A stretch of 64,000 nt of DNA from a bacterium (GCA_021803465.1 JAJZLL010000011.1:913-64912), one strand, 5' to 3'; positions 192 through 37,871 are shown, numbered from the stretch's first letter. The notes: generated by a model from the letters alone, not told the origin. Made by a program: numbers and translations.

Positions 192-776
192 CTATCCTGT
201 CAGATTCCACATGGGTGTCTGGCCCTCTGCACCAGCGATTGCGTAGGTCAGCTGCACGGGAACGGACTTCACGGGAACATCAAATACAATGTAACCACTA
301 GCTGGCTTGTTGAGGACAAAGACATTGAGCCCAGTTCCAGAAAGCTCATGTGCAAATGTTGTGGAGCCAAGTCCATGCAGGTCTGGCTGTTGCGCAACAG
401 GAAGGTGCTGTATTCCGTCCGAATCCGTGATGACTGCATACAGGCCAGCCATCATTGACACCTGGTCCGGTGGATTGGCATTCCCTGCAACACCTTCATA
501 TGTGATCTGGAGTTCCACTGCAACAGCACGCTGACCCTTAGGCGCACTGACTCCCTTGACTGGATCGACAATGTTCGCCAGCTTGACGTTCAAGCCGAGC
601 GGCATACCCTTCTGAACAAGCGTAGTTGGCTGGATCTGGCCAATTCCTGCGTAGTGCACGACAAATGGAGTAGCTGCAGTACCTGAGCTCCCTGCTCCCC
701 CACCGCATGCAGCAATGCCAAGAGTGATAAGCGCACCAAGTGCGAGTTGGACAAAGCGGTAGTGTCTCCTGTTCAT
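192..776 (-). CDS. Predicted lipoprotein of unknown function
   Basis: ORF 192..875 trimmed to internal Met (MNRRHYRFVQLALGALITLGIAAC...) giving signal peptide + lipobox LGIAAC; ATG overlaps stop of upstream gene (ATGA at 773-776), suggesting co-transcription. Confidence 0.5.
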   Translation of the reverse strand: MNRRHYRFVQLALGALITLGIAACGGGAGSSGTAATPFVVHYAGIGQIQPTTLVQKGMPLGLNVKLANIVDPVKGVSAPKGQRAVAVELQITYEGVAGNANPPDQVSMMAGLYAVITDSDGIQHLPVAQQPDLHGLGSTTFAHELSGTGLNVFVLNKPASGYIVFDVPVKSVPVQLTYAIAGAEGQTPMWNLTG

Positions 777-2197
777 GCGGCAGTTCTCCCAGCAGCTCCT
801 GATGAGCGCCGCCTGATCATGTAGACTGCTCCACCAATGATCACGACAACGATGACTATACCTGCAATGATCCATGGGGTCGCACCGGCATTTTGTGGAT
901 TGAGCGCGCCCACATTCACCGTGCTGCTCACTGTGGATCCTGTGTGCTCAAGAAGGTAGACATCAGTCCCACTAGAATCTCCTAAAACAGCTGCATGTCC
1001 ATTGCCAAACGACACAACACCAGTGAGCGCACCTGCCTGCACTTTCCCACCAATCTGAATATCTACTGAAGTCCAAGCTGTTCCATCAAAATGCGCGAGA
1101 TACGGGTAGGGCTTCGCGCTCTCGCCAAGATGCTGGAACGCAGTACCAGTGATCCATACATCACTTGAGGAGGTGGAAGAAATACCCGAGACATCAATGA
1201 CAGTGTCCCCATGGGGAATGGGCACATTCGCAATCTGCGAAATTTTTGAACCATTCCAGTGGAGTACGAGGGGGTACGAAACACTGTTCTGAATCGAAGT
1301 TCCTGATGTCACCTGTGCAAGGAACCACACATCCTTGGCACTGTTCTCATGAATTTCCAGAACGCTCACCAGAGTCCCCCCAGCTCCACTGGCAAGACTG
1401 CTGGGAGTCGGCACAACGCTCAATGTCGCTCCATTCCAGTGCTGTATGAGGGGTGCAGCACTTGTTGCTGTTCCCCCAGCCAACCATACGTCGTCTGGTC
1501 CCGTGGTTCCAACAGCAGCAAGGAAGACTCCCTTCACAGTTTCGGGAATACTCGTCCACTGTGAGCCGTTCCAGTGAAACAGGAATGTCGTGGGAACACC
1601 ATGGGGATCCTTGAGCGAATACCCCACAGCCCACACATTGTCGCTTGCCGATGCAGCAACGCCATACAGGACACCTGGAGTTGTCGAATCCGGTGAGGGT
1701 AACTGTGTCGCACTCCAGGAAGAGCCATTCCAATGTTCAGCAAGTGGAAATGCGTTCGTATTGTTCGAGTAGTCATACCCTGGCTGCGACCACCCCACTG
1801 CCCAGATATCTGAACTGGACAGAGCACTCACTGACATGAACTGCATGCTCTCATTTGGTGCAGGTGGAGACATGTTCGTCACTGTGTTGTTATCCACTCG
1901 CATGACAACCGGATGAATCTGCGAATGAATGGGCTTGGACTTTGTCTGCACTGTGTAACTGCCTGCCAAAACTGTCATGTTTCCGCTCCCTGGCACCGTG
2001 ACAATGTCAGAGAAGCTTTCCTTCACATTGAGTTTGGATGTCGACTGCGCCAATGGGGGGATGGAAACTTTACTCCAGCCTGTTCCCGTTGAGGCATCCA
2101 CCAGACTGCCACTCAGAAGAACCATTGCGCATGAGCTGATGAGTACTCCCAATGCCCGCCACATCAATGGGCCACCTGTATTGTGCGTCCGCTGCAT
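773..2197 (-). CDS. Secreted/cell-surface protein with ~50-aa-spaced 'HWNGS-W' blades (beta-propeller-like) and C-terminal TM anchor + RRR tail
   Basis: Signal peptide MWRALGVLISSCAMVLLSGSLVDA; recurring HWNGSSWS / HWNGSQWT / HWNGATLS / HWNGSKIS / HFDGTAWT motifs; C-terminal hydrophobic IIAGIVIVVVIIGGAV followed by IRRRSS. Confidence 0.5.
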   Translation of the reverse strand: MQRTHNTGGPLMWRALGVLISSCAMVLLSGSLVDASTGTGWSKVSIPPLAQSTSKLNVKESFSDIVTVPGSGNMTVLAGSYTVQTKSKPIHSQIHPVVMRVDNNTVTNMSPPAPNESMQFMSVSALSSSDIWAVGWSQPGYDYSNNTNAFPLAEHWNGSSWSATQLPSPDSTTPGVLYGVAASASDNVWAVGYSLKDPHGVPTTFLFHWNGSQWTSIPETVKGVFLAAVGTTGPDDVWLAGGTATSAAPLIQHWNGATLSVVPTPSSLASGAGGTLVSVLEIHENSAKDVWFLAQVTSGTSIQNSVSYPLVLHWNGSKISQIANVPIPHGDTVIDVSGISSTSSSDVWITGTAFQHLGESAKPYPYLAHFDGTAWTSVDIQIGGKVQAGALTGVVSFGNGHAAVLGDSSGTDVYLLEHTGSTVSSTVNVGALNPQNAGATPWIIAGIVIVVVIIGGAVYMIRRRSSGAAGRTAA

Positions 2198-2379
2198 AAT
2201 CCCATCCTTGAGTTTCCCTGTTAAGCAGTGATCACCCGTATTGCAGACCACAGCTCCTGCATCCCCATTAACCTAGCACGTTCTTCGAATACATGGTGGT
2301 CGCAATTGTGACACAGATGAAAGCGGCCGGCGCTCCTCTTGGAGCGGCCGACCGCTTTTGCTTCTTCAAGTTTGGACTG

Positions 2380-4413
2380 CTAGCCCTGATTTGGCTCAAC
2401 CTGCTTCACAATGAGGGGATTGGAATTCACCTGATTGTAGCTCACATTGGTTGTGGTCCATGGGAAGTCATGCCATGCACCCTGCAGGTAGAGAGGATAT
2501 ATCGGATAGGTGTACGACTGGAGATATGTGTGGTAGTTCCAGTACCACCCAGTGTACCAATAGCCCCAGGTTGCAATGTTGTAGTAGAGGTACCAGTTCG
2601 TGTAGCCCTGCGGAGTCGCGATGGTATAGGAGGGGTACCCAGCATAGCTTTCCCAGCCAATATTTCCAGCATAGTTGCAGTATGCGACCCACCATATTCC
2701 CATGTCCGCATCACCATCCCGGTCAGGGTTGACAGTCTGGTTGTCTGCACACTGGTCGAAGCCAACAGAGTTCCAGCCAGTTGCATATGCCTGCCATGCA
2801 GTACTGTATGAGAAGTTGTAGTCCGTATACGTCCCCCACACACCATAGGTCCACTGCGTGTAATCATACTTCGCGATCGGATCCTGGGACCAGCTGCCTA
2901 CCGTGTGGAGGCTCGTCTGTGTCAGTGGACTTGATGGTGCCTGTGGATAGAACTGGAAATATGGAGGGGGAACATTGTAGTTGTACTGGCATCCACCTGC
3001 CTGTGCACAGGTGTCCACGACCTGTCCACTGTACGGCTGTGGTCCTGTTGAATTCGGATTGGTCGTATAGGTTTGTGGATTGACCACATAGTAGGTGTAG
3101 GATGCCCACTGTGGAACATACTTGATGACCCATTGGTAGTTGAGCTGTGACGTGTGGTAGTAAGCAGTGTACGAAGCAACATGCTGCTGGTCAACGGACG
3201 GATATGTAGGAGAGCTGGTCAAATACGGAGCCCACCCGCCATACCAAGTCGTCACAACGGGTCCTGGATACCAGATTGCCGAAGGCTGGGTGGACATAGA
3301 CACATCATCACCATCATCGTAAAGACAGCCATACCACCTGCCATCAGGAATGTAGCCACCTCCGTAGTCGGCCTCTCCAGCCTCGTTCTGCCAGCCACCA
3401 CCCGCATTCACGCAGTAGTTGAACTCGTCTGACCACCACGGAAGAAACTGGTTGCCATCACTCCATGAGCAGCATCCAACGGAGCCACCCTGGTCAGCAC
3501 CAAGGAGCGGATAGTAGCCAGCAGGATAAACATACTGTGACGTGTACTGCTGCGAATTGTTTGTAATGTAGTACTGGGTGAAAGACTGGGTCTGATCATT
3601 CGTGTAGCCAGCACGCCATGCCTGTGGCTGCTGCGTCACATACGATGCATTTGCAGTGGGACATGTTGCTGTCGGAGTCCCCGCATAGACAGTGGCAGGG
3701 TTGCCGCAGTTGTACGATATCGTCTGAGCCTTAAGTTGGTAGGTTGTATATGGCTGCTTTCCAGACCAGATGACAACGAGGGAAGGTGTGTAGTTTCCAG
3801 CAGTCGCATATGTGTGAGTGACTTTCATGGTATATGTTGGAGGATTCGTTGCAGGTGAAGTAGCCGTGAGAGGTAACACAATGCATGGCTGTGTGGCACC
3901 AGACGCTGCCGAGGATGAGGTGTAAGGGAAATTTCTTGAGGAAACTGTATTCGTGGTGTAGTTGCAGACTGAGTTTGGATTCTGATTTGGGTAGTAGAAC
4001 TCGAGGACTACCTCAAATGGCTGCCACTCGATGAGCTCGTTGGTCCCGTTCGATGGAGCTGGAGCTGCAGGATTCGTGCAGGTCTGGAGGGGAATGGAGT
4101 TGTTTCCATTGACTGGCGGCTCAGTGTACACGCACTTGTCAACCTGTGCACTGAACTGTTCAGGATAGCCGACTACACCCGGGACTGGACCTTCAGTCAA
4201 AGAGGAACTGCTCGCAGGAGGGCATGATTGCTGTGATCCTGGAAGATAGCAGTTCAGCGTTGAGACTGGAGGGGGGCTCGATGCCTGCACAGTCTGCACA
4301 CCAAGCGTACCCAAGCCAATGACAAAGCTGCCAAGAGCAATCATCAGGGACACAACAATGCCAACGGCCCGGGATGACAGAGCCATCGCTGTCCTTTTCC
4401 ATGTACTTCTCAT
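2380..4413 (-). CDS. Large secreted Tyr/Trp/Thr/Gln/Asn-rich protein (N-terminal signal anchor), function unknown
   Basis: 682-aa ORF; N-terminal hydrophobic segment AVGIVVSLMIALGSFVIGLG; extreme aromatic/polar low-complexity composition (e.g. ...GYTNWYLYYNIATWGYWYTGWYWNYHTYLQSYTYPIYPLYLQ...); same strand and immediately downstream of TadE-like genes. Confidence 0.5.
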   Translation of the reverse strand: MRSTWKRTAMALSSRAVGIVVSLMIALGSFVIGLGTLGVQTVQASSPPPVSTLNCYLPGSQQSCPPASSSSLTEGPVPGVVGYPEQFSAQVDKCVYTEPPVNGNNSIPLQTCTNPAAPAPSNGTNELIEWQPFEVVLEFYYPNQNPNSVCNYTTNTVSSRNFPYTSSSAASGATQPCIVLPLTATSPATNPPTYTMKVTHTYATAGNYTPSLVVIWSGKQPYTTYQLKAQTISYNCGNPATVYAGTPTATCPTANASYVTQQPQAWRAGYTNDQTQSFTQYYITNNSQQYTSQYVYPAGYYPLLGADQGGSVGCCSWSDGNQFLPWWSDEFNYCVNAGGGWQNEAGEADYGGGYIPDGRWYGCLYDDGDDVSMSTQPSAIWYPGPVVTTWYGGWAPYLTSSPTYPSVDQQHVASYTAYYHTSQLNYQWVIKYVPQWASYTYYVVNPQTYTTNPNSTGPQPYSGQVVDTCAQAGGCQYNYNVPPPYFQFYPQAPSSPLTQTSLHTVGSWSQDPIAKYDYTQWTYGVWGTYTDYNFSYSTAWQAYATGWNSVGFDQCADNQTVNPDRDGDADMGIWWVAYCNYAGNIGWESYAGYPSYTIATPQGYTNWYLYYNIATWGYWYTGWYWNYHTYLQSYTYPIYPLYLQGAWHDFPWTTTNVSYNQVNSNPLIVKQVEPNQG

Positions 4414-4547
4414 CTCTGCAACCCCCAAGCCATGCTTCGAGTAGGTGTGATACCTTTCATTATCATTAACGCGACCAGCAATTCTGCGATGAGAGCGTCA
4501 CAGTGTCATGACGATTCTGTGGTCACTCGATGGATTCAGCATCCTGC

Positions 4548-5135
4548 TCAGCAGTAGTCAATCGGCACGCCTGTAGAAGGACATGTATGACTGCGGAATG
4601 GTTCCAGCGCTTCTGCAGATACTGCCCTCACTGTTGCGTGATTCCAGAGGGGAATCCAGGAGAGAGTGATGGTCGCTTTCACATCAACACCCACTACTCC
4701 TCCCCTCCATATGCCAAAACATCCGCCATCTCCTCCGGCTCCCCCATATCCATCACCAGTACATGATGCTGGTATGCCTGTACATGTGTTTGCCCCAGCA
4801 GTGCTTATTGTGCAGCTGGCTGAACTGAGAGCTGCAGCACATGTGATGGCAGGCGTTGGATACGGAGTTGTATAGAGTGGTGACTTCAACGCGCTGTCAA
4901 AGGCTGCAATGGCCTGTGCATACCCAGTGTCACCATTTGCGCATGAGTCGTTACTGTTTCTCGCAATGGTGAGAGCAGCCTCATTGGATGCCTGCTGGAG
5001 TAGGCTTTGCGCCTGAATGTACGAGTCAATTGCAATGGCTCCAAAGAACACCGTGATCATAACTGGCAGGAGAACAGCGAACTCCACCATCGTCTGGGCT
5101 CTTCCACTTCGCCGTTGGTAGGTACGCCTTCTCAT
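4548..5135 (-). CDS. TadE-like Flp pilus assembly protein (pseudopilin)
   Basis: N-terminal TadE motif RAQTMVEFAVLLPVMITVFFGAIAI; ATGA overlap with upstream gene at 5132-5135. Confidence 0.7.
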   Translation of the reverse strand: MRRRTYQRRSGRAQTMVEFAVLLPVMITVFFGAIAIDSYIQAQSLLQQASNEAALTIARNSNDSCANGDTGYAQAIAAFDSALKSPLYTTPYPTPAITCAAALSSASCTISTAGANTCTGIPASCTGDGYGGAGGDGGCFGIWRGGVVGVDVKATITLSWIPLWNHATVRAVSAEALEPFRSHTCPSTGVPIDYC

Positions 5136-5743
5136 TGTTCAAACTCCTGCACAGTGAAGGTGTCTTGGGCATATACGGGAAGTCTGTTGCCAAGTATGGG
5201 AGCAGGTGCAATGAGAGGCTTGTACCCTACTATGGTCACAGTGATAACGAGTGTTGATGTCAGGGATCCACCGTTTGTGTTCGCTGTTGCGCACACCATG
5301 AGAACATTTGATGCTGATGCGGATACACGAGTATTGAGGTATGCAAGTTCCTGCTTTTCTGTTGGTGGAGTTGACACACTGTATGTGGGACCAAGAGGAC
5401 GATATCCCAGAGGACAGGATGTGACAGGCATTGGATTCCCCGCACCACATCTCCCTCCTGTAGTTCCGCTTACCAGTGGTGTTGTGCCAAGAAAGCTTTC
5501 CGAAGTCGCTGCATGGTACGCCGTCTCCCCAGCTAGACATTCCAGTTGTAGAGCATTCGTTGGCATGCCTGCTACCTGAACTCCCTCCTGAGCAGCAAAT
5601 TCGAGACTGTTGAGGTCCAGCTGCCAAAGGAAGGCAACCACTCCTCCAAAGATGATGACAATGAACACAGGGAAAACGAAGGTGAATTCCACAAGCGACT
5701 GAGCTCGTGACCTTTTCCTCAAAGTTGTCGAAGGTGCTCTCAT
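5132..5743 (-). CDS. TadE-like Flp pilus assembly protein (pseudopilin)
   Basis: N-terminal RAQSLVEFTFVFPVFIVIIFGGVVAF matches TadE/TadG-like N-terminal domain. Confidence 0.7.
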   Translation of the reverse strand: MRAPSTTLRKRSRAQSLVEFTFVFPVFIVIIFGGVVAFLWQLDLNSLEFAAQEGVQVAGMPTNALQLECLAGETAYHAATSESFLGTTPLVSGTTGGRCGAGNPMPVTSCPLGYRPLGPTYSVSTPPTEKQELAYLNTRVSASASNVLMVCATANTNGGSLTSTLVITVTIVGYKPLIAPAPILGNRLPVYAQDTFTVQEFEQ

Positions 5744-5744
5744 G

Positions 5745-6611
5745 TCAGTCTCCTAAACAGCCATACGCTGTGGATTTCGACTGCATGAGGATGGAGGACT
5801 CGCCAATGAAGACCCCAAATGGCTGGCTCGCCTGCATCCAGATTCTGACTGTCACCTGCCTTCCGAAAAGTCCTGTTGCTGGACACACATACAGGGATCC
5901 GGATGATGAATCATGAGCATCCGTCTGAGCTGCACCACCGGCCCCGACATCATCACTCACTCCACCAGTCGGGTCATCGCCATCAAGCATGTACGATGAA
6001 CTTACTTGCACCTGGAACTCAATATTTGTCAGAGAACTTCCCTGCTCAGCAGCTTTGCACTGTGACGAAGTGTATACGCCAGTTCCGCTTTCTGTTCCCT
6101 CACAGGGCTGTGTTGCTGTTGGAGCTGCTGCTGCATTTATCGTATACCCGGGAAAGGCCTGCTTGAGCACATTATTCACAGAGTATTCTGCGGACAGCGA
6201 GGCGATCTGCTGCTCCTCTGTCTGGACAATTGCCCAATCAGCAGGGCTGAACGATGCAGGTGTTCCAAGAATGCCGGGGGACGTTTCCATGGGAAACATG
6301 TCCGGAGCGATGCCCGAAGCATAGTCAGTGGTGTAACCACCATACTGACATTCATATTCGTTGTAGTTGTACTGAGATGCCATGCACGCATCACCGCTAG
6401 CAGCGATAGCGGCAACGACAGTCGCTGCATCTAGCCTGCTCCTCGCGTTGAGGAAAATCTCGCCAGACATTGTGAGCCCCAGGAGGGCAATGATGACAGG
6501 AAGCATGAGAGCGAACAGGGGCATGACCTGAGCCCTGCCTGTGGAACGTGCACCAGTCAGCCGAGACTCTGAATATCCCAGATCAAACCGCACCTGGGAC
6601 AGCCTTCGCAT
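5745..6611 (-). CDS. TadG-like putative pilus assembly protein
   Basis: N-terminus GRAQVMPLFALMLPVIIALLGLTMSGEIFLNARSRLDAATVVAAIAA resembles Tad N-terminal (PF13400-type) segment; long Ser/Thr/Gly-rich extracellular part; start trimmed to MRRLSQ... Confidence 0.55.
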   Translation of the reverse strand: MRRLSQVRFDLGYSESRLTGARSTGRAQVMPLFALMLPVIIALLGLTMSGEIFLNARSRLDAATVVAAIAASGDACMASQYNYNEYECQYGGYTTDYASGIAPDMFPMETSPGILGTPASFSPADWAIVQTEEQQIASLSAEYSVNNVLKQAFPGYTINAAAAPTATQPCEGTESGTGVYTSSQCKAAEQGSSLTNIEFQVQVSSSYMLDGDDPTGGVSDDVGAGGAAQTDAHDSSSGSLYVCPATGLFGRQVTVRIWMQASQPFGVFIGESSILMQSKSTAYGCLGD

Positions 6612-6765
6612 TGTGCTTCGAGTATGTCTTCGGTTCCGAATCACATGCACGTCCTTATTGCAGCCCAAATTGCATCCGCAGCTCCATGGTCACATCTGTT
6701 CCCAAGAAGCGCAACTGCATGTTGGTTACAACATTGACACGGAATCATGCACACGCTCGCTGCCT

Positions 6766-7662
6766 TCATGATGCATCCCCGTCATGTCCATTCGTGTCCC
6801 CTGCATTGGAAGCGGAATATCCCTTGAGATATGTCACTGTTCCCTGCCCGATGGTACTGCCCATAATGGAGCTTCCGCTTGCTCCGATAGTCACCGTAAC
6901 ACTGCCAAGCCCTATCCCCGGCAGAGCAATGCTCCATTCTCTAATGGATCTGGATCTATCAATGAACACGGTAGCGTAAAGCTTAGCGCCATGAGTGAGG
7001 GCAGTCTGCGCAAGCCGGTTCGCCGCAACTGCGAGAGGCCCAGATGCGCGTGAGGGAACAACGGCAAGATCCACCTTGCAGGTGATTTCCTCACCAATCA
7101 GACCATCAAAGGTCACATTCTTGGCGGATACGATGCCAACAGTTCCCCAGTCAATGAGGGAAAGAGACACAGCCGGATCAACCGTCACCAAGTCTGCCAC
7201 TGTGGCGGGGAGCTGTCTTGTTACAGTGGGCACTGTGCTCAGCTGGGCAGCAGTCCACTTGGACGGCTGTGCATTCTGTGGAACAATGCCACTATAGAAG
7301 AGTGTGCTGTCACCGAACTCCATCACAACTGCTTTGCCTGACTTCACATCTATGTTCAGGAATCCCGAATCAGAAGAGAAATCGAATCTCCCTGCAGCCT
7401 CAGCACCCAGATGGAATGGCAACAGTGGCACACTGGAGTTCCACGACTCTTTCACGCTGTAGGCTCCCTGACTGATGGCAGCAACACTTGCAGCAAGTTC
7501 ATTGATATATGGGATTGCTGAAGCTGGTGGTACATCAGAAAACGATGGTCCGCCCGAGATTGAGGATGTGTCCAGGCTGTGACTCGCACATGAAGTTCCC
7601 ATGGTAATCACAAAGCAGGCTGCAAGTAATACGTGGATTCTGGATTTATGGGAACAGAGCAT
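6766..7662 (-). CDS. Hypothetical secreted lipoprotein
   Basis: 298-aa ORF, N-terminal signal with LAAC lipobox-like motif; embedded in Tad operon on same strand. Confidence 0.45.
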   Translation of the reverse strand: MLCSHKSRIHVLLAACFVITMGTSCASHSLDTSSISGGPSFSDVPPASAIPYINELAASVAAISQGAYSVKESWNSSVPLLPFHLGAEAAGRFDFSSDSGFLNIDVKSGKAVVMEFGDSTLFYSGIVPQNAQPSKWTAAQLSTVPTVTRQLPATVADLVTVDPAVSLSLIDWGTVGIVSAKNVTFDGLIGEEITCKVDLAVVPSRASGPLAVAANRLAQTALTHGAKLYATVFIDRSRSIREWSIALPGIGLGSVTVTIGASGSSIMGSTIGQGTVTYLKGYSASNAGDTNGHDGDAS

Positions 7663-7741
7663 GACATCCCTCTTCGCTTCTCTTCCCCTTCCCTGCAGCC
7701 CCCCCCAACCGGCTCAAAAAGGTTTGCCCTGAACCAGGTAT

Positions 7742-8326
7742 CTACAGCCTGTTGAGCGGGCTTGGAAGTGTGGAGCCAAACATGTAGGACGAGTATACGG
7801 TGATGGGCTGCTGTGCACTGAGGAAGTAGACAATGTACTTCACTGGATTTCCTTGAGAAGAACTTCCAACGCTCGTGACAGTGAAATTGCCCTGCACAAT
7901 CACCACCCACACCTTGGACGGAATGTGTGGCACTCCATTCACATACTGGCTCACCAGCGACTCATCCACCAACTGTGGTGGCAGGCAGCTTATCGCTCCT
8001 TTTGCAGAGATGTTGCCCTGCTGGTTGAGGATCTCATGAACCAGCGAAACGAGCTCAGATACAGTAGTTGCTCCGCTTGGTGTCGCAATGGGGGGGAGTG
8101 TCTGCCCTGGAGACAACGTAATTGGGGAGGGTGTTGGACCACCCGGTTGATATGTTGCAGATCCACAGTTCGCGTCATACTTCGCATTCACAAGCGGTCC
8201 AACATGGGTGCTTGGTTTGGGGATGCTAGGTGTTGGAGTGGTTTGCTTCGCTCCCTGCTGCTGTCCGCATCCTGCAAGGAGGAGAATCCCAGACAATATT
8301 GCAGCAATTGATGCGATTTTCTTCAT
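7742..8326 (-). CDS. Hypothetical lipoprotein
   Basis: MKKIASIAAILSGILLLAGCG signal peptide/lipobox; Pro/Thr-rich linker. Confidence 0.5.
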   Translation of the reverse strand: MKKIASIAAILSGILLLAGCGQQQGAKQTTPTPSIPKPSTHVGPLVNAKYDANCGSATYQPGGPTPSPITLSPGQTLPPIATPSGATTVSELVSLVHEILNQQGNISAKGAISCLPPQLVDESLVSQYVNGVPHIPSKVWVVIVQGNFTVTSVGSSSQGNPVKYIVYFLSAQQPITVYSSYMFGSTLPSPLNRL

Positions 8327-8363
8327 GGCAAATTCTGACCTTTTCGTGTTCATGGTTGTACGC

Positions 8364-9212
8364 CTACCCGAAGAGTTGTTGGAACGAACCTGAATTCACT
8401 CCAGGGTCGGGAGTTGGTGAAGGAGAGCTGCCATAGGTAATGAAGTTCGAGTTGCTGAGAAGAACATATTCAAGGATTGAGCTCTGCGTTGGATTCTTTG
8501 GATCCATGATATAGCTCAGCAGTTCAGCTTCAGACTCTGGAATGCCGACAATAAGCTCAGAAGCAGTACCTGAATTTGCCTGTCCTACAGTACCAACATT
8601 GAGGATCGTCACATTGTGCGCGATGACCTTTATCTGGCCCTGGCCATTGACGTCCGCAAGTATGTCAATCTGGTCTCCTGGCTGAAGGAATCCGCCCACT
8701 CCCTCCATTGCGTTCATGGGTATGGCAAGCGCCACATAGCCTGAGGGAAGCGAGAATGGATCCTCTCGACATGTACCCTGCGAGACTGCAGTTGCTTTTG
8801 GTGAACTTGACGGCGAGGTGGACGTTATGAGCGTGGGAGCGGCTGAAGCCTGCGGAGTGCACACTACAGCAATGCCCGTTGTTTTCGTTGGACTCACAAG
8901 GCTTGGAGTGAGTATCTGCTGAGGTGCAATGCTGACAATCGCATACTGGCCGACTACTTTTGACGGATTCGTATACGCGCCAGCTGGAACAGCAGTCGTT
9001 GGCACCTGCACTGCAGAGACTTCAGCCTGGGTGATAGCGCTGCCGTTTGGAATTTCGCTTGTGGCCTCAACGACGTACACCATGGGAACGCTCGAGATGC
9101 CGCCCCCTGCTTTCGTAAGCACGATGAGACCAACTGCTCCAGCAGCGGCAATGATGAGACCCACGACTATCGCGATGAGTTTGTTCGGACGGCCACCTGG
9201 CCTCATTGTCAT
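8364..9212 (-). CDS. cpaB: Flp pilus assembly protein CpaB/RcpC (SAF-domain)
   Basis: N-terminal TM (LIAIVVGLIIAAAGAVGLIVL) followed by SAF-like segment VVEATSEIPNGSAITQAEVSAVQVP and RcpC-like C-terminus; start trimmed to internal Met. Confidence 0.65.
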   Translation of the reverse strand: MTMRPGGRPNKLIAIVVGLIIAAAGAVGLIVLTKAGGGISSVPMVYVVEATSEIPNGSAITQAEVSAVQVPTTAVPAGAYTNPSKVVGQYAIVSIAPQQILTPSLVSPTKTTGIAVVCTPQASAAPTLITSTSPSSSPKATAVSQGTCREDPFSLPSGYVALAIPMNAMEGVGGFLQPGDQIDILADVNGQGQIKVIAHNVTILNVGTVGQANSGTASELIVGIPESEAELLSYIMDPKNPTQSSILEYVLLSNSNFITYGSSPSPTPDPGVNSGSFQQLFG

Positions 9213-9498
9213 ACCCATAGAGCTGATCCTACGTCCTTTTCTAAGCTGCATTGGCGGTGCGAACCGCATGGGGAGACGTATGCGATTCGACACCTAGTGT
9301 AGGGTAAACGGGAGGAAATGTGTGATGATCCGTGTTACGATCCTGTGCCAATGGGAACGCGACAGCCATTCACTTCCCACCCTGTCCACGTGCACGTCAC
9401 AGCGAGGTGACAGATCTGCAGCACCAGTCCCTGCGCAGGCGCTTCCATCCTACAGTTGGGACATCAACGCTGTGCAGCTTCGAGGGAGGAGCACCACC

Positions 9499-12619: not shown

Positions 12620-13555
12620 TCATCCACCTGTCATAATCTTGACGATTGCGGGCCCGAGAAGCACGAGAAACACGCATGGAAAGATGCAGAGCAGCATGGG
12701 AAGCAGCATGAGTACAGGTGCCTTGTGTCCCGCCTCCTCCGCCCTCTGCTTCCGTATTCTCCGGAGTTCCTCCGACTGGACACGGAGCACATTGGCCACA
12801 CTCACGCCAAGGGGTTCTGCCTGAACGACTGCCCGGATGAAGTTGTCGAGCTCATCGACTGGATTCCTCTCCGACATGGCAGTGAGAGCCTCAAGCCGTG
12901 GCCTGCCCAGACGGATCTCGTCGAGTGTCTTCTGGAACTCCTTTCCCAATGGACTCTGTTCCGACTCGGCCACACGGTTCATGGCCATGTCCATGCTGAG
13001 CCCTGCCTCCATGCTGATGGTCAGGAGATCCATGACGCCTGGAAGGGCACGGGAGATGAGCTTCTGCCTCTTCTTGATCTTGCTCTTGAGTGATGAAACA
13101 GGAAGACTCCTGCCAAAGAAGACCCCTCCTGCAACTGCTGCAAGCGTGATCGGAAGCCCAAGGCTGAGATAGTTCCCCAGGAAGAATGCTGCCACGACAA
13201 AGACGATCGGGAGAATGATCTGCTGTCCCAACAGCATCTGGGGTGACTTCCCCTCAACGTCAGCCTGGACAATAAGCCGCTGGAGTTTCTCGATCTGGCC
13301 CGCCTTCGAATTCCTCATCATGAGGTTGCCAATGCGGTTGAAGAGCGGTGATATCACCCGTTCCGAGAAGGGAAGGGCCATCTCGTCATCACTGGCTGGC
13401 AGTGCAATGTTCGAACTTCCACCCATTGCCTCATCAACTCCGTAGAGGCGCTGCTCAAGGCGATCCTTGCTGGTTGAGGGAGAAGCTATCACAAGCACGA
13501 GGACAAAGACCCCGATGATGACTGCAATGCCTTCCACGATAGTGATCGGTGTCAT
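12620..13555 (-). CDS. tadC: Tad pilus inner-membrane platform protein TadC (T2SS F family)
   Basis: 311 aa, N- and C-terminal TM helices flanking cytoplasmic T2SSF-like domain (LISRALPGVMDLLTISMEAGLSMDMAM...). Confidence 0.8.
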   Translation of the reverse strand: MTPITIVEGIAVIIGVFVLVLVIASPSTSKDRLEQRLYGVDEAMGGSSNIALPASDDEMALPFSERVISPLFNRIGNLMMRNSKAGQIEKLQRLIVQADVEGKSPQMLLGQQIILPIVFVVAAFFLGNYLSLGLPITLAAVAGGVFFGRSLPVSSLKSKIKKRQKLISRALPGVMDLLTISMEAGLSMDMAMNRVAESEQSPLGKEFQKTLDEIRLGRPRLEALTAMSERNPVDELDNFIRAVVQAEPLGVSVANVLRVQSEELRRIRKQRAEEAGHKAPVLMLLPMLLCIFPCVFLVLLGPAIVKIMTGG

Positions 13556-13560
13556 TACTG

Positions 13561-14547
13561 CTACACCTCCACATTCACTATCTTGCGGATGATGGCATAG
13601 CCGCCTGCAATCATGAAGAAGGCAAAGCCGAGCATGATCTGGCCAGGCAGCTTCGTGAGCATGGGATCAAAGTAGGTTGGAGCAATCATGTAGAGGATTC
13701 CACTCAGTGCCAGCGGCAGCACTATGAGCACCCAGCCTGAAGCACGGGCCTGTCCAGTTATGGTCTTGATCTCACCCTTGATGCGCACACGTTCCCGGAT
13801 GGTGTATTCGATGTTGTCAAGAATGACAGCGAGATTTCCACCCACCTGCTGCTGGATCTGGATGGCTGTCATGAGAAGCTTCAGGTCCTCCGACTCGCTC
13901 CGCTCGACCATGTGGCCAAACGCCTCAATGAAGGGGACTCCCAGCTGTGTCTCCCGCATCACGCGTGCGAGATCTGGCCCCATGGGTGGAGCCGCATTCT
14001 GGGAAACCAGACTCATCGCCTGAGCAAGCGTGTACCCCGCCTTGACTCCATTGCTGAGTGCGAGGACAGTCGGGCCAAGCTGGTCCTCAAACTTCTTCCG
14101 CCGCTTGTTGTAGCGCATCTTCAGGTAGTAGCGGGAACCGACAATGCCAATGATTATGCCCACAATGAGACCAAGGATGCTTTTGAAGCGCAGCATGAGC
14201 AGCAGTCCCAGCACAATGCTTCCCGCAGTCGACATCGCTGTCCACTCCGCTGGGTGCAGCTTGAGGTCAGCCCTCTGCAGCTGCTCCACCAGCTTTGCTC
14301 CACGAGTGGACTTTTCGAAGCGCTTCCCAACACTCTGCTGCAGCGAATCGCGGATGTCGAACGACCTCCGCTTCGTGCCCTGAAGCGCAAGAGGAGTGTC
14401 TCCATACTCATCTTCCCATTCACTCTCCATTGACGGCGTGGCTTCAGGCTCTTCCGCAGCACGGGCCTTTGAGCCCGTGAGGAGGAACACTGCGCTGAAC
14501 ACTCCCAGGATGACGAGTGCACCGGCAATGAGAGAGACGAAAGTCAC
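13561..14547 (-). CDS. tadB: Tad pilus inner-membrane platform protein TadB (T2SS F family)
   Basis: 328 aa, T2SSF-like domain (FEDQLGPTVLALSNGVKAGYTLAQAM...), adjacent to tadC. Confidence 0.8.
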   Translation of the reverse strand: MTFVSLIAGALVILGVFSAVFLLTGSKARAAEEPEATPSMESEWEDEYGDTPLALQGTKRRSFDIRDSLQQSVGKRFEKSTRGAKLVEQLQRADLKLHPAEWTAMSTAGSIVLGLLLMLRFKSILGLIVGIIIGIVGSRYYLKMRYNKRRKKFEDQLGPTVLALSNGVKAGYTLAQAMSLVSQNAAPPMGPDLARVMRETQLGVPFIEAFGHMVERSESEDLKLLMTAIQIQQQVGGNLAVILDNIEYTIRERVRIKGEIKTITGQARASGWVLIVLPLALSGILYMIAPTYFDPMLTKLPGQIMLGFAFFMIAGGYAIIRKIVNVEV

Positions 14548-32933: not shown

Positions 32934-33494
32934 TCAACGGTGGAGACGATAGCGAAGGTAAATGACGCCACATCTGAAGGTGTGTTCGTCAATAAGCTCA
33001 AGCTGTGCCCGCATGCCATGGGACAGTGCGGGGTTGCGCCCCCCGAGAATGATGGGCCAGATGAACAGTGCAATCTCATCGACCAGACCAGCGGCCATCG
33101 CCTGCGAAGCGAGGTTCGGACCACCGATGAGCATGTCCGTGCTGACAGCATCCTTCATGGCGAGCACTGAACTGGAGACAAACTGGCGTTCAAGCCGCGT
33201 GTTCACTGTGGTCGTTGCGGACAGTGTCGTGGAGTAGACGATCTTCTCCGACTGCTTCCACACTCCCGCAAAGTCTGCAGTGAGTGCTGACTGCCCAGCC
33301 AGGGCGAAGTCCGTTTCCCACACTGCCATCGTTTCGTACATGCGCCGTCCATAGAGGTATGTGCCTGCAGCCCGCATGAGCGTGGTGATGAACGCAAAGA
33401 CGTCATCGTCAGGGCGTGACCAGTCGAAAGCGCTGTGCTCGTCCTCAGTGCAGCCATCGAGCGCCATGTTTGCAGCGTAGATCAGCTTTGCCAT
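32934..33494 (-). CDS. Dihydrofolate reductase-family (RibD C-terminal domain-like) protein
   Basis: MAKLIYAANMALDGC...FDW...GRRMYETM pattern typical of the YwjB/RibD_C-type DHFR family. Confidence 0.65.
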   Translation of the reverse strand: MAKLIYAANMALDGCTEDEHSAFDWSRPDDDVFAFITTLMRAAGTYLYGRRMYETMAVWETDFALAGQSALTADFAGVWKQSEKIVYSTTLSATTTVNTRLERQFVSSSVLAMKDAVSTDMLIGGPNLASQAMAAGLVDEIALFIWPIILGGRNPALSHGMRAQLELIDEHTFRCGVIYLRYRLHR

Positions 33495-33568: not shown

Positions 33569-34459
33569 TCAATGCTCCCCGTCAGGAGGATGGAGGCGCA
33601 CTTCCACTGCACCCTCATGCCGTCGGGCTTCGAGCACAGTCTGAGGGCTGGAGGCGGGCCCGTGGACAACCTCTCCTGTTGCAAGATCAAACACACTGTG
33701 GTGCCAGGGGCAGCTCACGCAACCGTCCCCATCGACTTGGCCCTCCACAAGTGGCCCACCAGCGTGGGAGCAGGTGTTGGCGAGGGCATAGATCTTCCTG
33801 TGGTTCTTGTACAGCACAATGTCAGTCCCGCCAGCAGTCACCTTCGTGAGAATGTTCTCCTTGAGGTCCTCGTCCTGGATCACAGCAGTCCAGTGCTCCG
33901 GATATGCTGCGAACGCGCCATGATCCACTCCCATTCCCTTGCGGAGTGTCATATGCCCACCAACATATCCTGCTCCTGCAAGAAGACCAAAGCCACAGAG
34001 CCTGAGTGCACGGGCACGGAGTCCATGGCCACGGAGTCTTGGCCCAAACGAAAGGAGATAGCATGCGAGTCCAGCACCGTTACCCACAGCATGAATGAAG
34101 CCAATCCGCTTCTCCTCACCGTAGGAGTCGACCCAGTCTGCAAGACCGCTCGCCACTGTGGGGACTGCTGCGAGAAGTCCGGCTGCGACGAGGAAATCGC
34201 TGCTTCTGCGAGCATGTCTGGTTCCCACCAGGTGAAGCAGGGTGGCTGAAGCAAGGGTACCAATGACAGCGTCAGTCAGTGCTGGGTGCACTGCGTGGCC
34301 GAGCCACCCGCCAGTGAGAGCGTCTTTCATATCGCCCTGTGGAAGGATCTCCCCCACGAGGTTCTGCAATGCATCCGCATACTGGTCCAGCCGTTCATCC
34401 CGGGCAAGCTGCTCAAGCAGATGCTCCAACTGTCGCCGTGCTCCTCGCTCCATCGACAT
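33569..34459 (-). CDS. Rieske [2Fe-2S] domain protein with N-terminal membrane (DUF2231-like) domain
   Basis: CSHAGGPL...CPWHHSVF Rieske ligands in C-terminal half; N-terminal half hydrophobic. Confidence 0.7.
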   Translation of the reverse strand: MSMERGARRQLEHLLEQLARDERLDQYADALQNLVGEILPQGDMKDALTGGWLGHAVHPALTDAVIGTLASATLLHLVGTRHARRSSDFLVAAGLLAAVPTVASGLADWVDSYGEEKRIGFIHAVGNGAGLACYLLSFGPRLRGHGLRARALRLCGFGLLAGAGYVGGHMTLRKGMGVDHGAFAAYPEHWTAVIQDEDLKENILTKVTAGGTDIVLYKNHRKIYALANTCSHAGGPLVEGQVDGDGCVSCPWHHSVFDLATGEVVHGPASSPQTVLEARRHEGAVEVRLHPPDGEH

Positions 34460-34552
34460 GCTGCTCCTCCATCACTTCCGTATTCAGGTCTCACACGAAA
34501 ACAGGGAATCCGGCATCGGATCCCCTGTTCGTGGATCAATTCATGGTATTGG

Positions 34553-34840
34553 CTAGTGGAATGTCGAAGAAACCGAAGACTCAGTCTCACGATACGAATT
34601 CGCTGCCTGGTGCAACTTGGCAGCAATCTGTGTCAGTGCGTCCTGCAGCTGTCGTGCTCCCGAGTTCCATTCCTGATACAGCCCATCAAAATTCTCGTGG
34701 GCAACACCACTCCACACGGACTGGAGTGCGTCCACCTGCGATCGAAGCTGTGTCAGGATCTGCTCAATATTGTCATTTGCCGATGTCGCGTTGTTTCCCG
34801 CCTGATCCACGTCATCAGGAGTTACTGCAAAACCACTCAT
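34553..34840 (-). CDS. WXG100-family (ESAT-6/EsxA-like) type VII secretion substrate
   Basis: 95 aa, helix-turn-helix with central W-S-G (QSVWSGVAHENF); typical WXG100 length and N-terminal ...VTPDDV... start. Confidence 0.75.
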   Translation of the reverse strand: MSGFAVTPDDVDQAGNNATSANDNIEQILTQLRSQVDALQSVWSGVAHENFDGLYQEWNSGARQLQDALTQIAAKLHQAANSYRETESSVSSTFH

Positions 34841-35047
34841 TTCGACTCCTCAACTGCAATGCATTCCTCCACCCGTCAGGGCTTGGTGCCAGTATAGGTG
34901 GAGTCATTTCCGGGCAGGGCTTCCTGTCACCCCATTGTTACCGCTTCGCAGACTTCCACAGTTCGAGTGTTTCAGCGCACAAGGACACTGCTGCTCCTGA
35001 GCCGTGCCCTTCCCGAAGGTGCCCAGAATTCTCTACACTGCTTACAC

Positions 35048-35257
35048 ATGGCAGAACCAATTTCGTCATCTGCAGCGCTCAGTGATTCCACTTTGCTCGA
35101 CTCGAGGTGTTCCCTCGCACACCAGACTGAGCGCAATTCCTCCGAGCGATTTCAGGACATCTTCGTGGAGGCGGAGGAGGCAGCAGCGAGCCGTGGGCTT
35201 ACCGAGGAAGACATCGTCGATGCAGTCCACAGGGCACGGAGGGCGCTTTCGCGATGA
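35048..35257 (+). CDS. Putative antitoxin partner of PIN toxin
   Basis: ~69-aa sub-ORF (MAEPISSS...EEDIVDAVHRARRALSR) ending with ATGA overlap onto PIN gene start; precise start uncertain. Confidence 0.4.
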   Translation: MAEPISSSAALSDSTLLDSRCSLAHQTERNSSERFQDIFVEAEEAAASRGLTEEDIVDAVHRARRALSR

Positions 35258-35700
35258 CGACAGCTCCCCCACAGGGTCCTCCAACACGGGTCGTCTTCGA
35301 CACCACAGTCCTTATCGGCGCAGTGTACTTCAATGGCGTCATGCGACGGGCCCTCATGTCCACAACACGGCCTAATGTTCAGCTCTACACGAGCTACCGC
35401 ATCCTTTCCGAGTTCTACTGGACATGTGCGAACGATCCGAGATTCCGCACCAGGCGACAGCACTACAAGACACTCTGGACCATGCTGCGTGCGAAGACTG
35501 TGGCTCCAGCTGGCATACCACCAACATGCCCAGATCCCAATGACGACCATGTGCTCGGAGCTGCAGTCACTGCGAAAGCTGACATGATCGTGAGCACTGA
35601 CCATCATCTGCTCAATATGAAGGAGTTCCGCGGAATTCCCATCGTCACTCCCGCGGAATATCTCAAATCGCTTGTGCGACCCGAGAGGTCAGTCGGGTAG
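35254..35700 (+). CDS. PIN-domain protein (VapC-like toxin)
   Basis: VVFDTTVLI...PDPNDDHVLGAAVTAKADMIVSTD: conserved acidic residues of a PIN nuclease fold. Confidence 0.65.
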   Translation: MTTAPPQGPPTRVVFDTTVLIGAVYFNGVMRRALMSTTRPNVQLYTSYRILSEFYWTCANDPRFRTRRQHYKTLWTMLRAKTVAPAGIPPTCPDPNDDHVLGAAVTAKADMIVSTDHHLLNMKEFRGIPIVTPAEYLKSLVRPERSVG

Positions 35701-35725
35701 GTTCACCCTTCCTTTCCAGTGGTTC

Positions 35726-36964
35726 CTATCCAGCAGCAAGATGGGTCTGGTAGTGTTCCAGTGCAGAACCGGTCATTTTCCACCCTGCAATCCTCACCTG
35801 GTCAGGAAGCAGTGGCCCAATGAAGTTTTCCGGCACTGGTTGAATGGCAGAAGATGTCCAGCCGGGCACCCGAATATCCGTTGGCAGAAGGGGACCGATG
35901 AAATTTCCAGGAACGAGGGTCACGCTGTTCGGATCAATGCCCTTCGGAATGGTGATGGACAGCGTTGCTGGTACTGTGGGCACAGCAGGTTTTGCACCAG
36001 AAGGTGGTGGCGGAGCAGCTGATGCCCGTTCCTGTACCATCGTGGCAACGGCTGATGACGTGCTGGAAAGCATCTGCAGTCCCGTGGCAGCAACTACACC
36101 ATCCGGAGGAAAGGTGAGCCTCTCACCAGGATAGATGATGGTGTTGGGATTGCCACCGAGCTTGGGATTTGCAGCGACAAGCTTCGTGTAATCCTCGCCA
36201 TTGCCGTACAGTGCCTGCGCAATTGCCCAGAGACTGTCACCCTCATTGATGACCACAGTATCCGGCTTCCAGGGAAGGAGAGAATCTGCTCCTGGCGTAG
36301 TGGAGACAGGCAGGACGAAACTTGACTTGAGAAAGGAGTTCTGGGAGAGGGAGTCGAGTGCTGCGGAAAATTGTGGTTTCATCTCGACTGTGAGTGCGTT
36401 GAGGAGGCTGTTCCAGGCATTCCTGAGGGAGGATGTCATCTGGGCATATTCGTCTGCACGTCCGGGATTCTCGAGGAACAGCATTGCGCCGTGTCCAAGA
36501 GGCAGGATGGCACCTGGAGCGGAAATGAACGTTGCGCTTGGCTTCTCGTGTGCGACATACAGCCATATTTCTCCATTGTTCCGGAGTACTGCCTGGTTCC
36601 CATTCGCATAGCAGAAATCCACCTGCGAGTAGTACCACTGGTTGAGTGCAGTCCACTCCGCCTGCACAGTGCCAAGGGTCGTCGCATACTGTGCAATGGC
36701 GTTGCCCATTTCAGTGGCAAACGAGCCCACGGTCGAACAGCTGTCTGACAGCGATTTCAGCGCAGTTGCGCAGGCATGCTGGGCTGTTCCACGCCAATCC
36801 GTCATCGATGCATCGACCCAAATGACGCCGTGCCCAAGATCCGAGAGGAACGTTCCCTCCTGTTGAAGCGTCTGTGCCAGCTGGTGGAGCGCACCCGGAT
36901 CGCCAGGAGGCGGGGGCGGGGGGTTCCACTCGTTTTCAGTCCAGGATGTTCCACCCATGTTCAT
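35726..36964 (-). CDS. WXG100-like N-terminal domain + LysM peptidoglycan-binding domain + C-terminal tandem-repeat protein
   Basis: N-terminal helical region with W-R-G (SMTDWRGTAQ); LysM at aa ~236-286 (DTVVINEGDSLWAIAQALYGNGEDYTKLVAANP...IYPGERLTFP); two C-terminal repeats VPGNFIGPLLPTDIRVPGW / VPENFIGPLLPDQVRIAGW. Confidence 0.6.
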   Translation of the reverse strand: MNMGGTSWTENEWNPPPPPPGDPGALHQLAQTLQQEGTFLSDLGHGVIWVDASMTDWRGTAQHACATALKSLSDSCSTVGSFATEMGNAIAQYATTLGTVQAEWTALNQWYYSQVDFCYANGNQAVLRNNGEIWLYVAHEKPSATFISAPGAILPLGHGAMLFLENPGRADEYAQMTSSLRNAWNSLLNALTVEMKPQFSAALDSLSQNSFLKSSFVLPVSTTPGADSLLPWKPDTVVINEGDSLWAIAQALYGNGEDYTKLVAANPKLGGNPNTIIYPGERLTFPPDGVVAATGLQMLSSTSSAVATMVQERASAAPPPPSGAKPAVPTVPATLSITIPKGIDPNSVTLVPGNFIGPLLPTDIRVPGWTSSAIQPVPENFIGPLLPDQVRIAGWKMTGSALEHYQTHLAAG

Positions 36965-37010
36965 TTCTCCTCACGCTTCGATGTCCTGCACCAGGATGTG
37001 ACGAGCAGCA

Positions 37011-37337
37011 TCATCGGGGACCGTGCAGGGGTGTGAAAGCTCTCGACGTTGCGCCTTCGGTCTGCTCGTAGGCGGATGCTGCCTGTTCGAGCGCTGAGGC
37101 TGCATTGGCTAACGCATCGTGTATCTGGCCTGCTGCCCGGGACAGGGTCGAGACCGCATACTGGATAGCCCCATCCGGATAGATCTGCTGCGCATTCCAG
37201 TCATCCCCGCTCGGATTGAGCTTTGCGCATGAGCTGGCATCATCCGCCGCTTTTGATGCTAGAGCCTTGAGCTCTCCGGCTGCTGCATGCAGCTGATCAG
37301 GCAGCACCTGCATGCCTCCTGGTACAAGTTGTGCCAT
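37011..37337 (-). CDS. WXG100-like small helical protein (EsxB/CFP-10-like partner)
   Basis: ~108 aa, MAQLVPGGMQVLPDQLHAAAGELKALA... with conserved W (DDWNAQQ) at the hairpin; strong SD GGAGGAG upstream of chosen ATG. Confidence 0.5.
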   Translation of the reverse strand: MAQLVPGGMQVLPDQLHAAAGELKALASKAADDASSCAKLNPSGDDWNAQQIYPDGAIQYAVSTLSRAAGQIHDALANAASALEQAASAYEQTEGATSRAFTPLHGPR

Positions 37338-37466
37338 GTTGCTCCTCCGCCAAGATCCGTCTGAACGAAAGTGTACGCATGTGCAGCAGCAGAGTTTCAC
37401 ATGTGCCGGGATTGTTACGCGAGTGCAACCTGCAGCCAGAGGACATGGCCCCGACCAGAACGGAGC

Positions 37467-37871
37467 CTACTCAAGCCCTCCCCGATCCCGTCGGTCCAGT
37501 CTGGCTTGGAACATGGCGTCAAGCGATGGAACCACCCGCTCCTCGAGTATGCGCAGACGGGTCCGTGTGCTTTGGGACAGCTGATGAGGATCCGCCACTT
37601 TCGAGGGACCCCGTTTCGCATCGGCCCGGAACTGGTCACGTGTGATATCGAGTTCCTCTCCGGATGGAAGGACAAGGAGGTAATGCGGCACATTGTCATA
37701 CGTTGTGCGGAGGATCGTGCCTCCCAGATACTCGTGCAGGATGAGTGTTGTCACAGCGCACTGTCCAGCCGATGGAAGTTCCCTAGACCACTGCTCTGCC
37801 TTCCAGGCAGTTGAAGCATCCCACGCACGCTCAAAGACCTGTCGAATCGCTGCCACGCGCTGTGAATCCAT
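37467..37871 (-). CDS. Conserved hypothetical protein (GQCAVT...LGG-I-RT...HY motif; possibly YunG-like)
   Basis: 134-aa sub-ORF with strong SD AGGAGGGGGA before ATG; first gene of the minus-strand WXG100 cluster. Confidence 0.45.
   Translation of the reverse strand: MDSQRVAAIRQVFERAWDASTAWKAEQWSRELPSAGQCAVTTLILHEYLGGTILRTTYDNVPHYLLVLPSGEELDITRDQFRADAKRGPSKVADPHQLSQSTRTRLRILEERVVPSLDAMFQARLDRRDRGGLE

Follow-up and report, generated by a model that had tools for sequence, protein, structure and literature searches.

A conserved WXG100 protein and a candidate bipartite type VII secretion substrate with a LysM domain in an uncultured Dormibacteria bacterium

We analysed a 64,000-nucleotide stretch of DNA (GCA_021803465.1 JAJZLL010000011.1:913-64912; hereafter the window) from an uncultured soil bacterium of Candidatus Dormibacteria (Chloroflexota), in which an initial annotation had reported an orphan island of three minus-strand genes related to WXG100 substrates of type VII secretion systems (T7SS). 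We call these genes g1, g2 and g3. We found that g1 is an ordinary member of the WXG100 family and new to it, that g2 combines a WXG-type N-terminus with a peptidoglycan-binding LysM domain, and that g3 is a small helical hairpin encoded just upstream of g2. On balance, we give slightly better than even chances to the reading that g1 is a conserved core EsxA-like protein, while g3 and g2 form an accessory bipartite T7SS substrate with a LysM wall-binding cargo and with its machinery elsewhere. The assignment of g3-g2 draws on signals that converge but are individually weak. All three open reading frames (ORFs) were found at the positions first given for them (Table 1), each with a GGAG-type Shine-Dalgarno (SD) site. 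At 37871, the upper limit proposed for the island, a YunG-family gene begins that is unrelated and lies outside the feature. The public gene call for g2 begins at M3, two codons later than the 412-aa (amino acid) ORF, and gives 410 aa. Since the g3 stop lies only 46 nt ahead of the g2 start, g3 and g2 are probably co-transcribed.

To characterise g1, we compared it with protein family models and structures. It scored 82.8 bits against PF06013 (cut-off 27.3, E 2.1e-23) and 80.7 bits against TIGR03930 (cut-off 44.85, E 6.9e-23), and W43-S-G45 stands in the central turn, in agreement with its first description as a canonical WXG100 protein. Its length of 95 aa, its WxG turn and its C-terminal Y83xxxE87xxV90xxxF94 all fit the family, the last following the HxxxD/ExxhxxxH pattern described for the WXG100 superfamily, of which some Chloroflexi members are known, though few (PMC3935865). 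EsxA and ESAT-6 were the best PDB sequence matches, and a cluster mate with >90% identity (MGC8460424.1) carries the name 'WXG100 family type VII secretion target [Candidatus Dormibacteria bacterium]'. Because g1 has both the WxG turn and the YxxxE..F arm, it would probably serve a T7SS as a homodimer, either as substrate or as co-factor, with its gene at a distance from the machinery.

We next compared the locus with those of three relatives (L004, which is the same as L013, GCA_049964715.1; L008; and L012), whose DNA is ~75-80% identical to the window. The g1 proteins share 97-98% of their amino acids with these orthologs at a synonymous divergence (dS) of 0.7-0.9, with a ratio of nonsynonymous to synonymous divergence (dN/dS) of ~0.02, which makes g1 the most conserved gene of the neighbourhood. 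A genome-contig scan with g1 returned two loci only, both from Dormibacteria, and the GTDB loci with a g1 ortholog come only from Dormibacteria/Dormiibacterota metagenome-assembled genomes. Directly 3' of g1 we found a terminator-like hairpin with a 12-bp core stem and a 4-nt loop, followed by UUUUCG; a simple pattern scan did not list it, and the folded RNA (34488-34540) has an energy of -28.4 kcal/mol (z -5.6), with 0 of 200 shuffles equally stable. This observation suggests that g1 is probably monocistronic. Here and in the three relatives g1 always lies directly upstream, on the same strand, of a gene for a membrane DUF2231-Rieske [2Fe-2S] fusion protein and always close to the nuo operon, a fixed housekeeping context (33569-34840, minus) that is unusual for a WXG100 gene.

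The g3 sequence has no W-x-G motif and ends in a C-terminal arm, Y90xxxE94xxT97xxxF101. When g3 was aligned with a WXG100 alignment by hhalign, the probability was 81%, and g3 residues 64-101 fell on g1 residues 57-94, with Y90xxxE94..F101 in register with Y83xxxE87..F94; tblastn found the same stretch 45% identical to the g1 C-terminus. The single-sequence AlphaFold2 (AF2) model has a mean predicted local distance difference test score (pLDDT) of 64, and shows helices at 13-39 and 55-96 and a disordered tail. WXG100 proteins, such as GBS1074, EsxB of B. anthracis and EsxA of Geobacillus, made up nearly all of the top Foldseek matches of this model in the PDB, at template modelling (TM) scores of 0.6-0.75, and PE25 was also among the matches. 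The Pfam matches of g3 to EspC and WXG100 were below threshold yet specific. A full-length homolog search returned g3 alone. g3 has the structural marks of the EspC type, a helix-turn-helix of ~100 aa without WxG and with YxxxE ending helix 2, and also its context, since it adjoins a larger gene with a WxG N-terminal helical domain. Judged from its sequence and predicted fold, g3 is best described as a WXG100-like hairpin without WxG and with a YxxxD/E export arm, the category of EspC, EspF, CFP-10, PE and Lap/EsxC/EsxD.

The N-terminus of g2 begins with a PPGDPGAL lead-in, carries W57-R-G59 at the turn and has Y112xxxD116 closing helix 2. A low-confidence AF2 model built from the single sequence (pLDDT 39) places helices at 23-42 and 57-120 with WRG between them, and was too poor for a fold search. 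Residues 238-286 match LysM (PF01476) with 27.4 bits (cut-off 20.9, E 3.3e-6), and NCBIfam LysM models match in part. A Pro/Ala/Ser-rich linker then precedes two copies of a C-terminal repeat with the consensus NFIGPLLP[TD][DQ][IV]R[VI][PA]GW (NFIGPLLPxxxRxxGW). The self-alignment of this repeat scored 75, compared with a mean of 17.6 (standard deviation 3.8, maximum 43) for shuffles, and the repeat has no Pfam, NCBIfam or PHROG match. Both the LysM domain and the tandem repeat named by the initial annotation were therefore recovered. Its view that the protein is of no described family also held: full-length homolog searches, including an exhaustive one, returned g2 itself only, and the literature searched contained no WXG100-LysM fusion. 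A cargo of LysM and NFIGPLLP repeats was not previously known. We found neither a signal peptide nor a transmembrane (TM-like) segment in g2, whose highest Kyte-Doolittle value over a 19-residue window is 1.51. Because g2 is signal-less yet has an extracytoplasmic wall-binding module, a dedicated export signal is plausible.

The architecture of g2, with an N-terminal helical targeting domain, a linker, a variable C-terminus and a small upstream helper, is typical of polymorphic T7SS toxins (PMC10765036), and g2 might be such a toxin of the LXG or WXG-toxin type with a C-terminal toxin domain. We regard this as highly improbable, because no toxin domain was recognisable in Pfam or NCBIfam and no immunity gene follows on the same strand, the next gene being a convergent and conserved PIN gene. 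In addition, no LXG family matched g2 at E <= 1 in the same two databases, and its C-terminus consists of the Pro-rich linker and two short repeats.

To find remote relatives of the g2 N-terminus, we ran an exhaustive HMMER (phmmer) search with residues 1-233 against 1.84 billion cluster representatives. Besides g2, only two credible relatives were found in the entire library, P0010 (E 1.5e-4) and P0011 (E 6.3e-4), with 28-30% identity. P0011 scored 31 bits against WXG100_2, above the cut-off, and just below the cut-offs for T7SS_signal and WXG100, and PxGDPGA[LI]...WR[GD] is common to g2, P0010 and P0011. A profile of these three sequences was then compared with 177,635 PDB sequences; the top five matches were all of the ESAT-6/CFP-10 type, with E ~5e-3. 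Three of them were entries for CFP-10/EsxB, one was an Esx protein of Thermomonospora and one a further ESAT-6-like protein, and the WRG motifs coincided in the alignment. Of the six matches of the exhaustive search, three (P0008, P0009 and P0012, a multi-cytochrome c protein among them) were set aside as compositional: these proteins are long and repetitive, and they match residues 145-208 by way of their repeated stretches. A word-index profile search with the N-terminal alignment added only P0013, P0014 and P0015, found on short contigs or with no recorded context.

Both relatives of the g2 N-terminal domain sit in ESX-type loci, and this context is the strongest argument for the assignment. 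In L015 the gene order is WXG100 (partial), WXG100 (98 aa), an EspC-like gene of 106 aa, P0011, a gene of 216 aa and EccD. In L016, the single locus found by a metagenome scan with the g2 family, it is EccD, a gene of 122 aa, a WXG100-like gene and a P0010-like gene. P0011 and the P0010-like protein, both of the WXG100_2 type, are the closest sequence relatives of the g2 N-terminus. L015 resembles g3-g2 further in that its EspC-like gene of ~106 aa lies directly upstream of the WXG100_2 protein. This gene scored 20.6 bits against EspC (PF10824, cut-off 23.5), EspC is the best or second-best Pfam match of both it and g3, and g3 matches it by BLASTP with E 1e-3. The likeness does not extend to the C-termini, which are unrelated to g2, Ala-rich or hydrophobic/TM-like, and without LysM; and the two relatives adjoin EccD, whereas g2 does not.

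Two other features of these loci were observed. In L016, the WXG100-like segment and the P0010-like protein form one continuous ORF of 576 aa (1629-3359, plus), which could be a natural hairpin-substrate fusion or two genes without an in-frame stop between them. In L015, the protein of 216 aa between the WXG100_2 protein and EccD (2194-2844, plus) belongs to no family; its faint matches, of the RseC/DUF389 type only, suggest a membrane protein, and it may belong with this class of substrates as another conserved partner.

The LysM stretch of g2 is also matched by PHROG endolysin and tail families, and g2 could accordingly be a LysM wall binder that leaves the cell by another route, such as holin- or lysis-type release, or a prophage remnant, with its WXG likeness a coincidence of coiled-coil composition. 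Its N-terminal profile scores below threshold and the scores of long repetitive proteins against residues 145-208 would fit this explanation. We nevertheless consider it very unlikely. The PHROG matches are limited to LysM, g2 has no catalytic domain, no holin, integrase or other phage gene lies nearby, and there are no flanking repeats; the N-terminal similarity is specific to WXG100_2 and CFP-10-type proteins, with WRG in register. A phage origin of g2 as such was rejected, the PHROG matches being to LysM only.

If g3 and g2 are a bipartite T7SS substrate, their mode of action may be as follows. The YxxxE export arm would come from g3 and the WxG turn from the N-terminal hairpin of g2, and the two hairpins would pack in the cytoplasm into a four-helix bundle, which an ATPase of the EccC/EssC type, with its gene in another part of the genome, would recognise. 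In this way g2 would be exported although it has no Sec signal. Once it is outside the membrane, binding of its LysM domain to peptidoglycan would keep the Pro-rich linker and both NFIGPLLP..GW repeats on the cell's own wall (presumed monoderm) or on that of a neighbour. The heterodimerisation of g3 and g2, their dependence on a T7SS, the existence of the machinery and the extracellular wall binding are what we infer here.

Several observations weigh against a T7SS role for g3-g2. First, g3 scored only 19.6 bits against WXG100 (PF06013, cut-off 27.3) and 17.5 bits against EspC (cut-off 23.5), and the g2 N-terminus 14.7 bits against WXG100_2 (PF25547) and 11.6 bits against T7SS_signal (PF21725), where both cut-offs are 27. 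With this score and no WxG, g3, first listed as a WXG100 protein, does not belong to that family in the strict sense; for the N-terminus of g2 the WXG motif of that first description was present at residues 57-59, and the profile support was not. The profile test for WXG100 proposed at the time thus confirmed g1 and did not directly establish g3 and g2. Second, hhalign of the g2 family against the local WXG100 sequences gave a probability of only 10.8%. The Foldseek E-values of g3 were weak (0.25-0.7), as is usual with so small a hairpin, a helical hairpin is a low-information fold, and a sequence search of the PDB with g3 gave coiled-coil noise only. By chance, [YF]xxx[DE] is expected ~0.7 times per 108 aa and ~2.7 times per 412 aa. 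Third, the contigs L015 and L016 are short and come from uncultured organisms of ~70% GC, and EccD is the sole machinery gene visible on them. Finally, g2 and g3 have no orthologs, so that selection on them is not measurable, and they were lost in three relatives.

The secretion machinery is also missing from the surroundings, which counts on the same side. None of EssC/EccC, EccB/D/E, MycP, EssB and EsaA was found in the 64-kb window or in the 5.4 kb past its low end (~70 kb in all), nor within +/-10 kb of g1 in L004, L008 and L012, and g1 therefore has no FtsK/SpoIIIE ATPase of the EssC/EccC kind nearby in any of these regions. The Pfam labels of the window include nuo genes, ribosomal proteins, SecY and a Tad/Flp pilus locus and no FtsK/SpoIIIE, and its largest ORF is <= 890 aa; the additional 5.4 kb holds TadE, topoisomerase I (TopA), S2, EF-Ts and unannotated genes. 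The initial annotation had likewise seen no machinery gene in the window, and our search upheld this.

These absences raise an explanation in which g1, g3 and the g2 N-terminus are intracellular bundles of the WXG100 fold, serving, for example, regulation or complex assembly in a lineage without a T7SS. It would account for the lack of machinery in ~70 kb here and near g1 in any of the four genomes, and for the constant position of g1 amid housekeeping genes (Rieske/DUF2231, nuo operon), and we found no literature linking Dormibacteria with a T7SS. We still think it unlikely. LysM binds peptidoglycan and has no evident ligand in the cytoplasm, the two remote relatives of the g2 N-terminal domain both adjoin EccD, and g1 and g3 keep the C-terminal export-arm pattern. 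Moreover, T7SS-bearing Mycobacterium and Bacillota commonly have orphan esx genes at a distance from the machinery.

To see how the genes vary, we examined the same position in the relatives. Their order is PepN, methyltransferase, YunG, PIN, antitoxin, WXG100, Rieske/DUF2231, SDR and nuoA, and g3 and g2 are absent from the syntenic position in all three. The intergenic spacer between YunG and PIN measures 194-243 bp in the relatives and 1766 bp here; between aligned blocks, the gap is ~250 bp compared with ~1.8 kb (~35686-37511). The spacer of L012 retains the g3 start and ~25 codons with a frameshift ('MAQPVTGGI' and LQVLADELHAAAGAL, compared with MAQLVPGGMQVLPDQLHAAAGEL in g3), and its DNA homology extends to window position 37276. 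A weaker remnant, of the g3 3' end, is left in L004 and L008 ('...AFTPMCG' versus '...AFTPLHG'). Because the relatives retain these pseudogene remnants in the YunG-PIN spacer, g3-g2 is ancestral to the four genomes compared and was not acquired here; the other three lost it by decay or deletion. A mobile-element origin was rejected, as there are no direct or inverted repeats flanking the cassette, its composition is normal and g3 remnants occur in relatives.

This comparison changes the picture of the island. The initial annotation had taken the three genes for one accessory unit, with divergent flank composition and a PIN/antitoxin pair inserted on the opposite strand, and had suggested a synteny check of whether they travel together. 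They do not: L004, L008 and L012 keep g1 without g3-g2. The GC content of g2 and g3, overall and at third codon positions (GC3), equals that of their neighbours. Only g3-g2 varies; g1 and the PIN/antitoxin pair belong to the conserved backbone.

Such losses could mean that g3-g2 is a functionless, decaying remnant that happens to be still intact in this genome, with g1 alone functional. In three relatives g3 is pseudogenised and g2 deleted, and with no g2 or g3 orthologs elsewhere selection is not demonstrable. We assign this explanation a low probability. Each ORF is unbroken and preceded by a good SD site, the g2 LysM still scores above threshold and the internal repeat is well preserved, and the composition of both genes fits the host genome. 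Furthermore, g2 is carried by 7 contigs from several samples, and the three loci that were read have the same sequence; two of the loci, L001 and L002, are 99.99-100% identical over 10.5 kb.

The pairing of a WxG partner with a YxxxD/E partner is an established rule, and larger substrates require small WXG100-like export factors encoded just upstream (PMC6107294, PMC10765036). We propose, by analogy, that g3-g2 is built on the same rule as EsxB/EsxA, PE/PPE, EspC/EspA, EspF/EspE and Lap/LXG. In the EspC/EspA and EspF/EspE pairs of ESX-1 (T7SSa), as in g3-g2, the small partner is a hairpin of ~100 aa without WxG and with YxxxD/E, and EspA and EspE resemble g2 in their ~400 aa, N-terminal WxG hairpin and variable C-terminal domain (PMC6107294). 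The two genes of each pair are adjacent, as they are here. The espACD operon, too, is located away from its machinery, that of ESX-1. In M. tuberculosis espA comes before espC and espE before espF, whereas the order here is small-then-large. Compared with EspC/EspA, g3 stays below the EspC cut-off, similarity of g2 to EspA or EspE was not detected, the cargo consists of LysM and novel repeats, and the host belongs to Dormibacteria (Chloroflexota) rather than Actinomycetota.

The LXG toxins of Bacillota (T7SSb), with Lap1/Lap2 or EsxB/C/D, are also like g3-g2 in having small non-WxG hairpins directly upstream, and their export signal is bipartite, formed by the [F/Y]xxxD of the helper C-terminal arm and the xG turn of the substrate (PMC10765036). 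In contrast to these systems, g3-g2 has no LXG, DUF3130 or DUF3958 match, one helper instead of two or three and no toxin/immunity module, and the remote relatives of g2 adjoin EccD, a T7SSa-type component. ESAT-6/CFP-10 is matched by g1 in profile, length, WxG turn and C-terminal pattern (for the pattern, PMC3935865), and by the g2 N-terminus, whose profile has CFP-10 as its best PDB matches. Unlike EsxA/EsxB, g1 is a single gene and not an esxB-esxA pair, with both motifs in one protein as in the homodimeric sagEsxA-like subfamily, and it does not stand beside an FtsK/SpoIIIE ATPase. The logic of a helper plus a WxG cargo is already known; a host from Dormibacteria and the absence of full-length homologs are new.

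T7SS biology is known almost wholly from Actinomycetota and Bacillota, and the literature mentions Chloroflexota WXG100 proteins only in passing. If our reading of g3-g2 is true, bipartite export with a YxxxE helper and a WxG cargo extends to Dormibacteria, an uncultured soil lineage; the same logic can bring a protein anchored on peptidoglycan to the surface, in place of a toxin or virulence factor; and such substrate pairs turn over fast while the core WXG100 protein stays near-invariant. Y90/E94 of g3 and W57 of g2 form a candidate export signal that can be tested. It is distinctly unlikely, in our view, that the lineage lacks a canonical EccC/EssC and that g1 and g3-g2 are exported by, or act in, a non-T7SS mechanism that delivers a signal-less LysM protein to the wall. 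In a lineage without EccC, the conserved g1 would raise the question of T7SS-independent roles for WXG100 proteins. In a weaker version, where the machinery exists, g3-g2 would, outside Actinomycetota and Bacillota, be the first bipartite substrate of Esp/Lap style to have a wall anchor, and not a toxin, as its cargo.

Table 1. Genes and elements of the g1 to g3 region, in positions of the window
Feature	Position	Strand	Description or basis
g1	34553-34840	minus	95 aa, canonical WXG100 (EsxA-like)
g2	35726-36964	minus	412-aa ORF, proposed T7SS-type cargo
g3	37011-37337	minus	108-aa WXG100-like (EspC/Lap-like) helical hairpin, without WxG
g2 N-terminal WXG-type hairpin (aa ~14-120)	36605-36925	minus	sub-threshold profiles, remote relatives, low-confidence AF2 model
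g2 LysM domain (aa 238-286)	36107-36253	minus	PF01476 above cut-off
g2 C-terminal two-copy repeat (aa 354-375 and 380-403)	35756-35905	minus	local self-alignment
Terminator-like hairpin 3' of g1	34496-34530	minus	sequence reading and RNA fold
Putative antitoxin	35048-35257 (ORF 34898-35257, start uncertain)	plus	outside the WXG module
PIN_3 toxin between g1 and g2	35254-35700	plus	PF13470; outside the WXG module

Between g1 and g3-g2, on the opposite strand, lie a PIN_3 toxin gene and its small upstream partner. The toxin matched PF13470 with 56.6 bits (cut-off 27, E 5.6e-15) and also TIGR00305. The stop of the putative antitoxin overlaps the PIN start (ATGA), so that the arrangement expected of a type II toxin-antitoxin (TA) system, a PIN gene with a small overlapping upstream gene, is present. 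The antitoxin has no Pfam family; its C-terminal 39 aa are 64% identical to an 84-aa gene upstream of PIN in L004. PIN is syntenic in L004, L008 and L012, with dN/dS of 0.02-0.04. The pair is conserved backbone under strong purifying selection, and its synteny together with g1 in these three genomes contradicts the insertion suggested earlier. The upstream partner of PIN is uncalled in the public annotation of the present contig (L001), and only its C-terminal ~39 aa are conserved in relatives.

Other parts of the window also showed features of note. The Tad/Flp-type pilus locus (773-9293 and 12620-14547, minus; L017) has two genes each for RcpC/CpaB-SAF, TadB/C (T2SSF) and TadE-like pilins, the last at 4548-5743. 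Beside it are Pfam-less ORFs of 682 and 668 aa at 2380-4428, of 492 and 474 aa at 773-2251 and of 298-307 aa at 5745-7662. A RibD_C gene (186 aa, 32934-33494, minus) lies between Rieske/DUF2231 and SDR and is absent there in L004, L008 and L012, making it a second small indel in otherwise conserved synteny. The YunG-family gene (PF24585, 37467-38030, minus) is the next gene upstream of g3, 129 nt away and on the same strand, and it could be transcribed together with g3-g2. Its public call is 134 aa, and its longest ORF, of 187 aa, overlaps a divergent methyltransferase gene.

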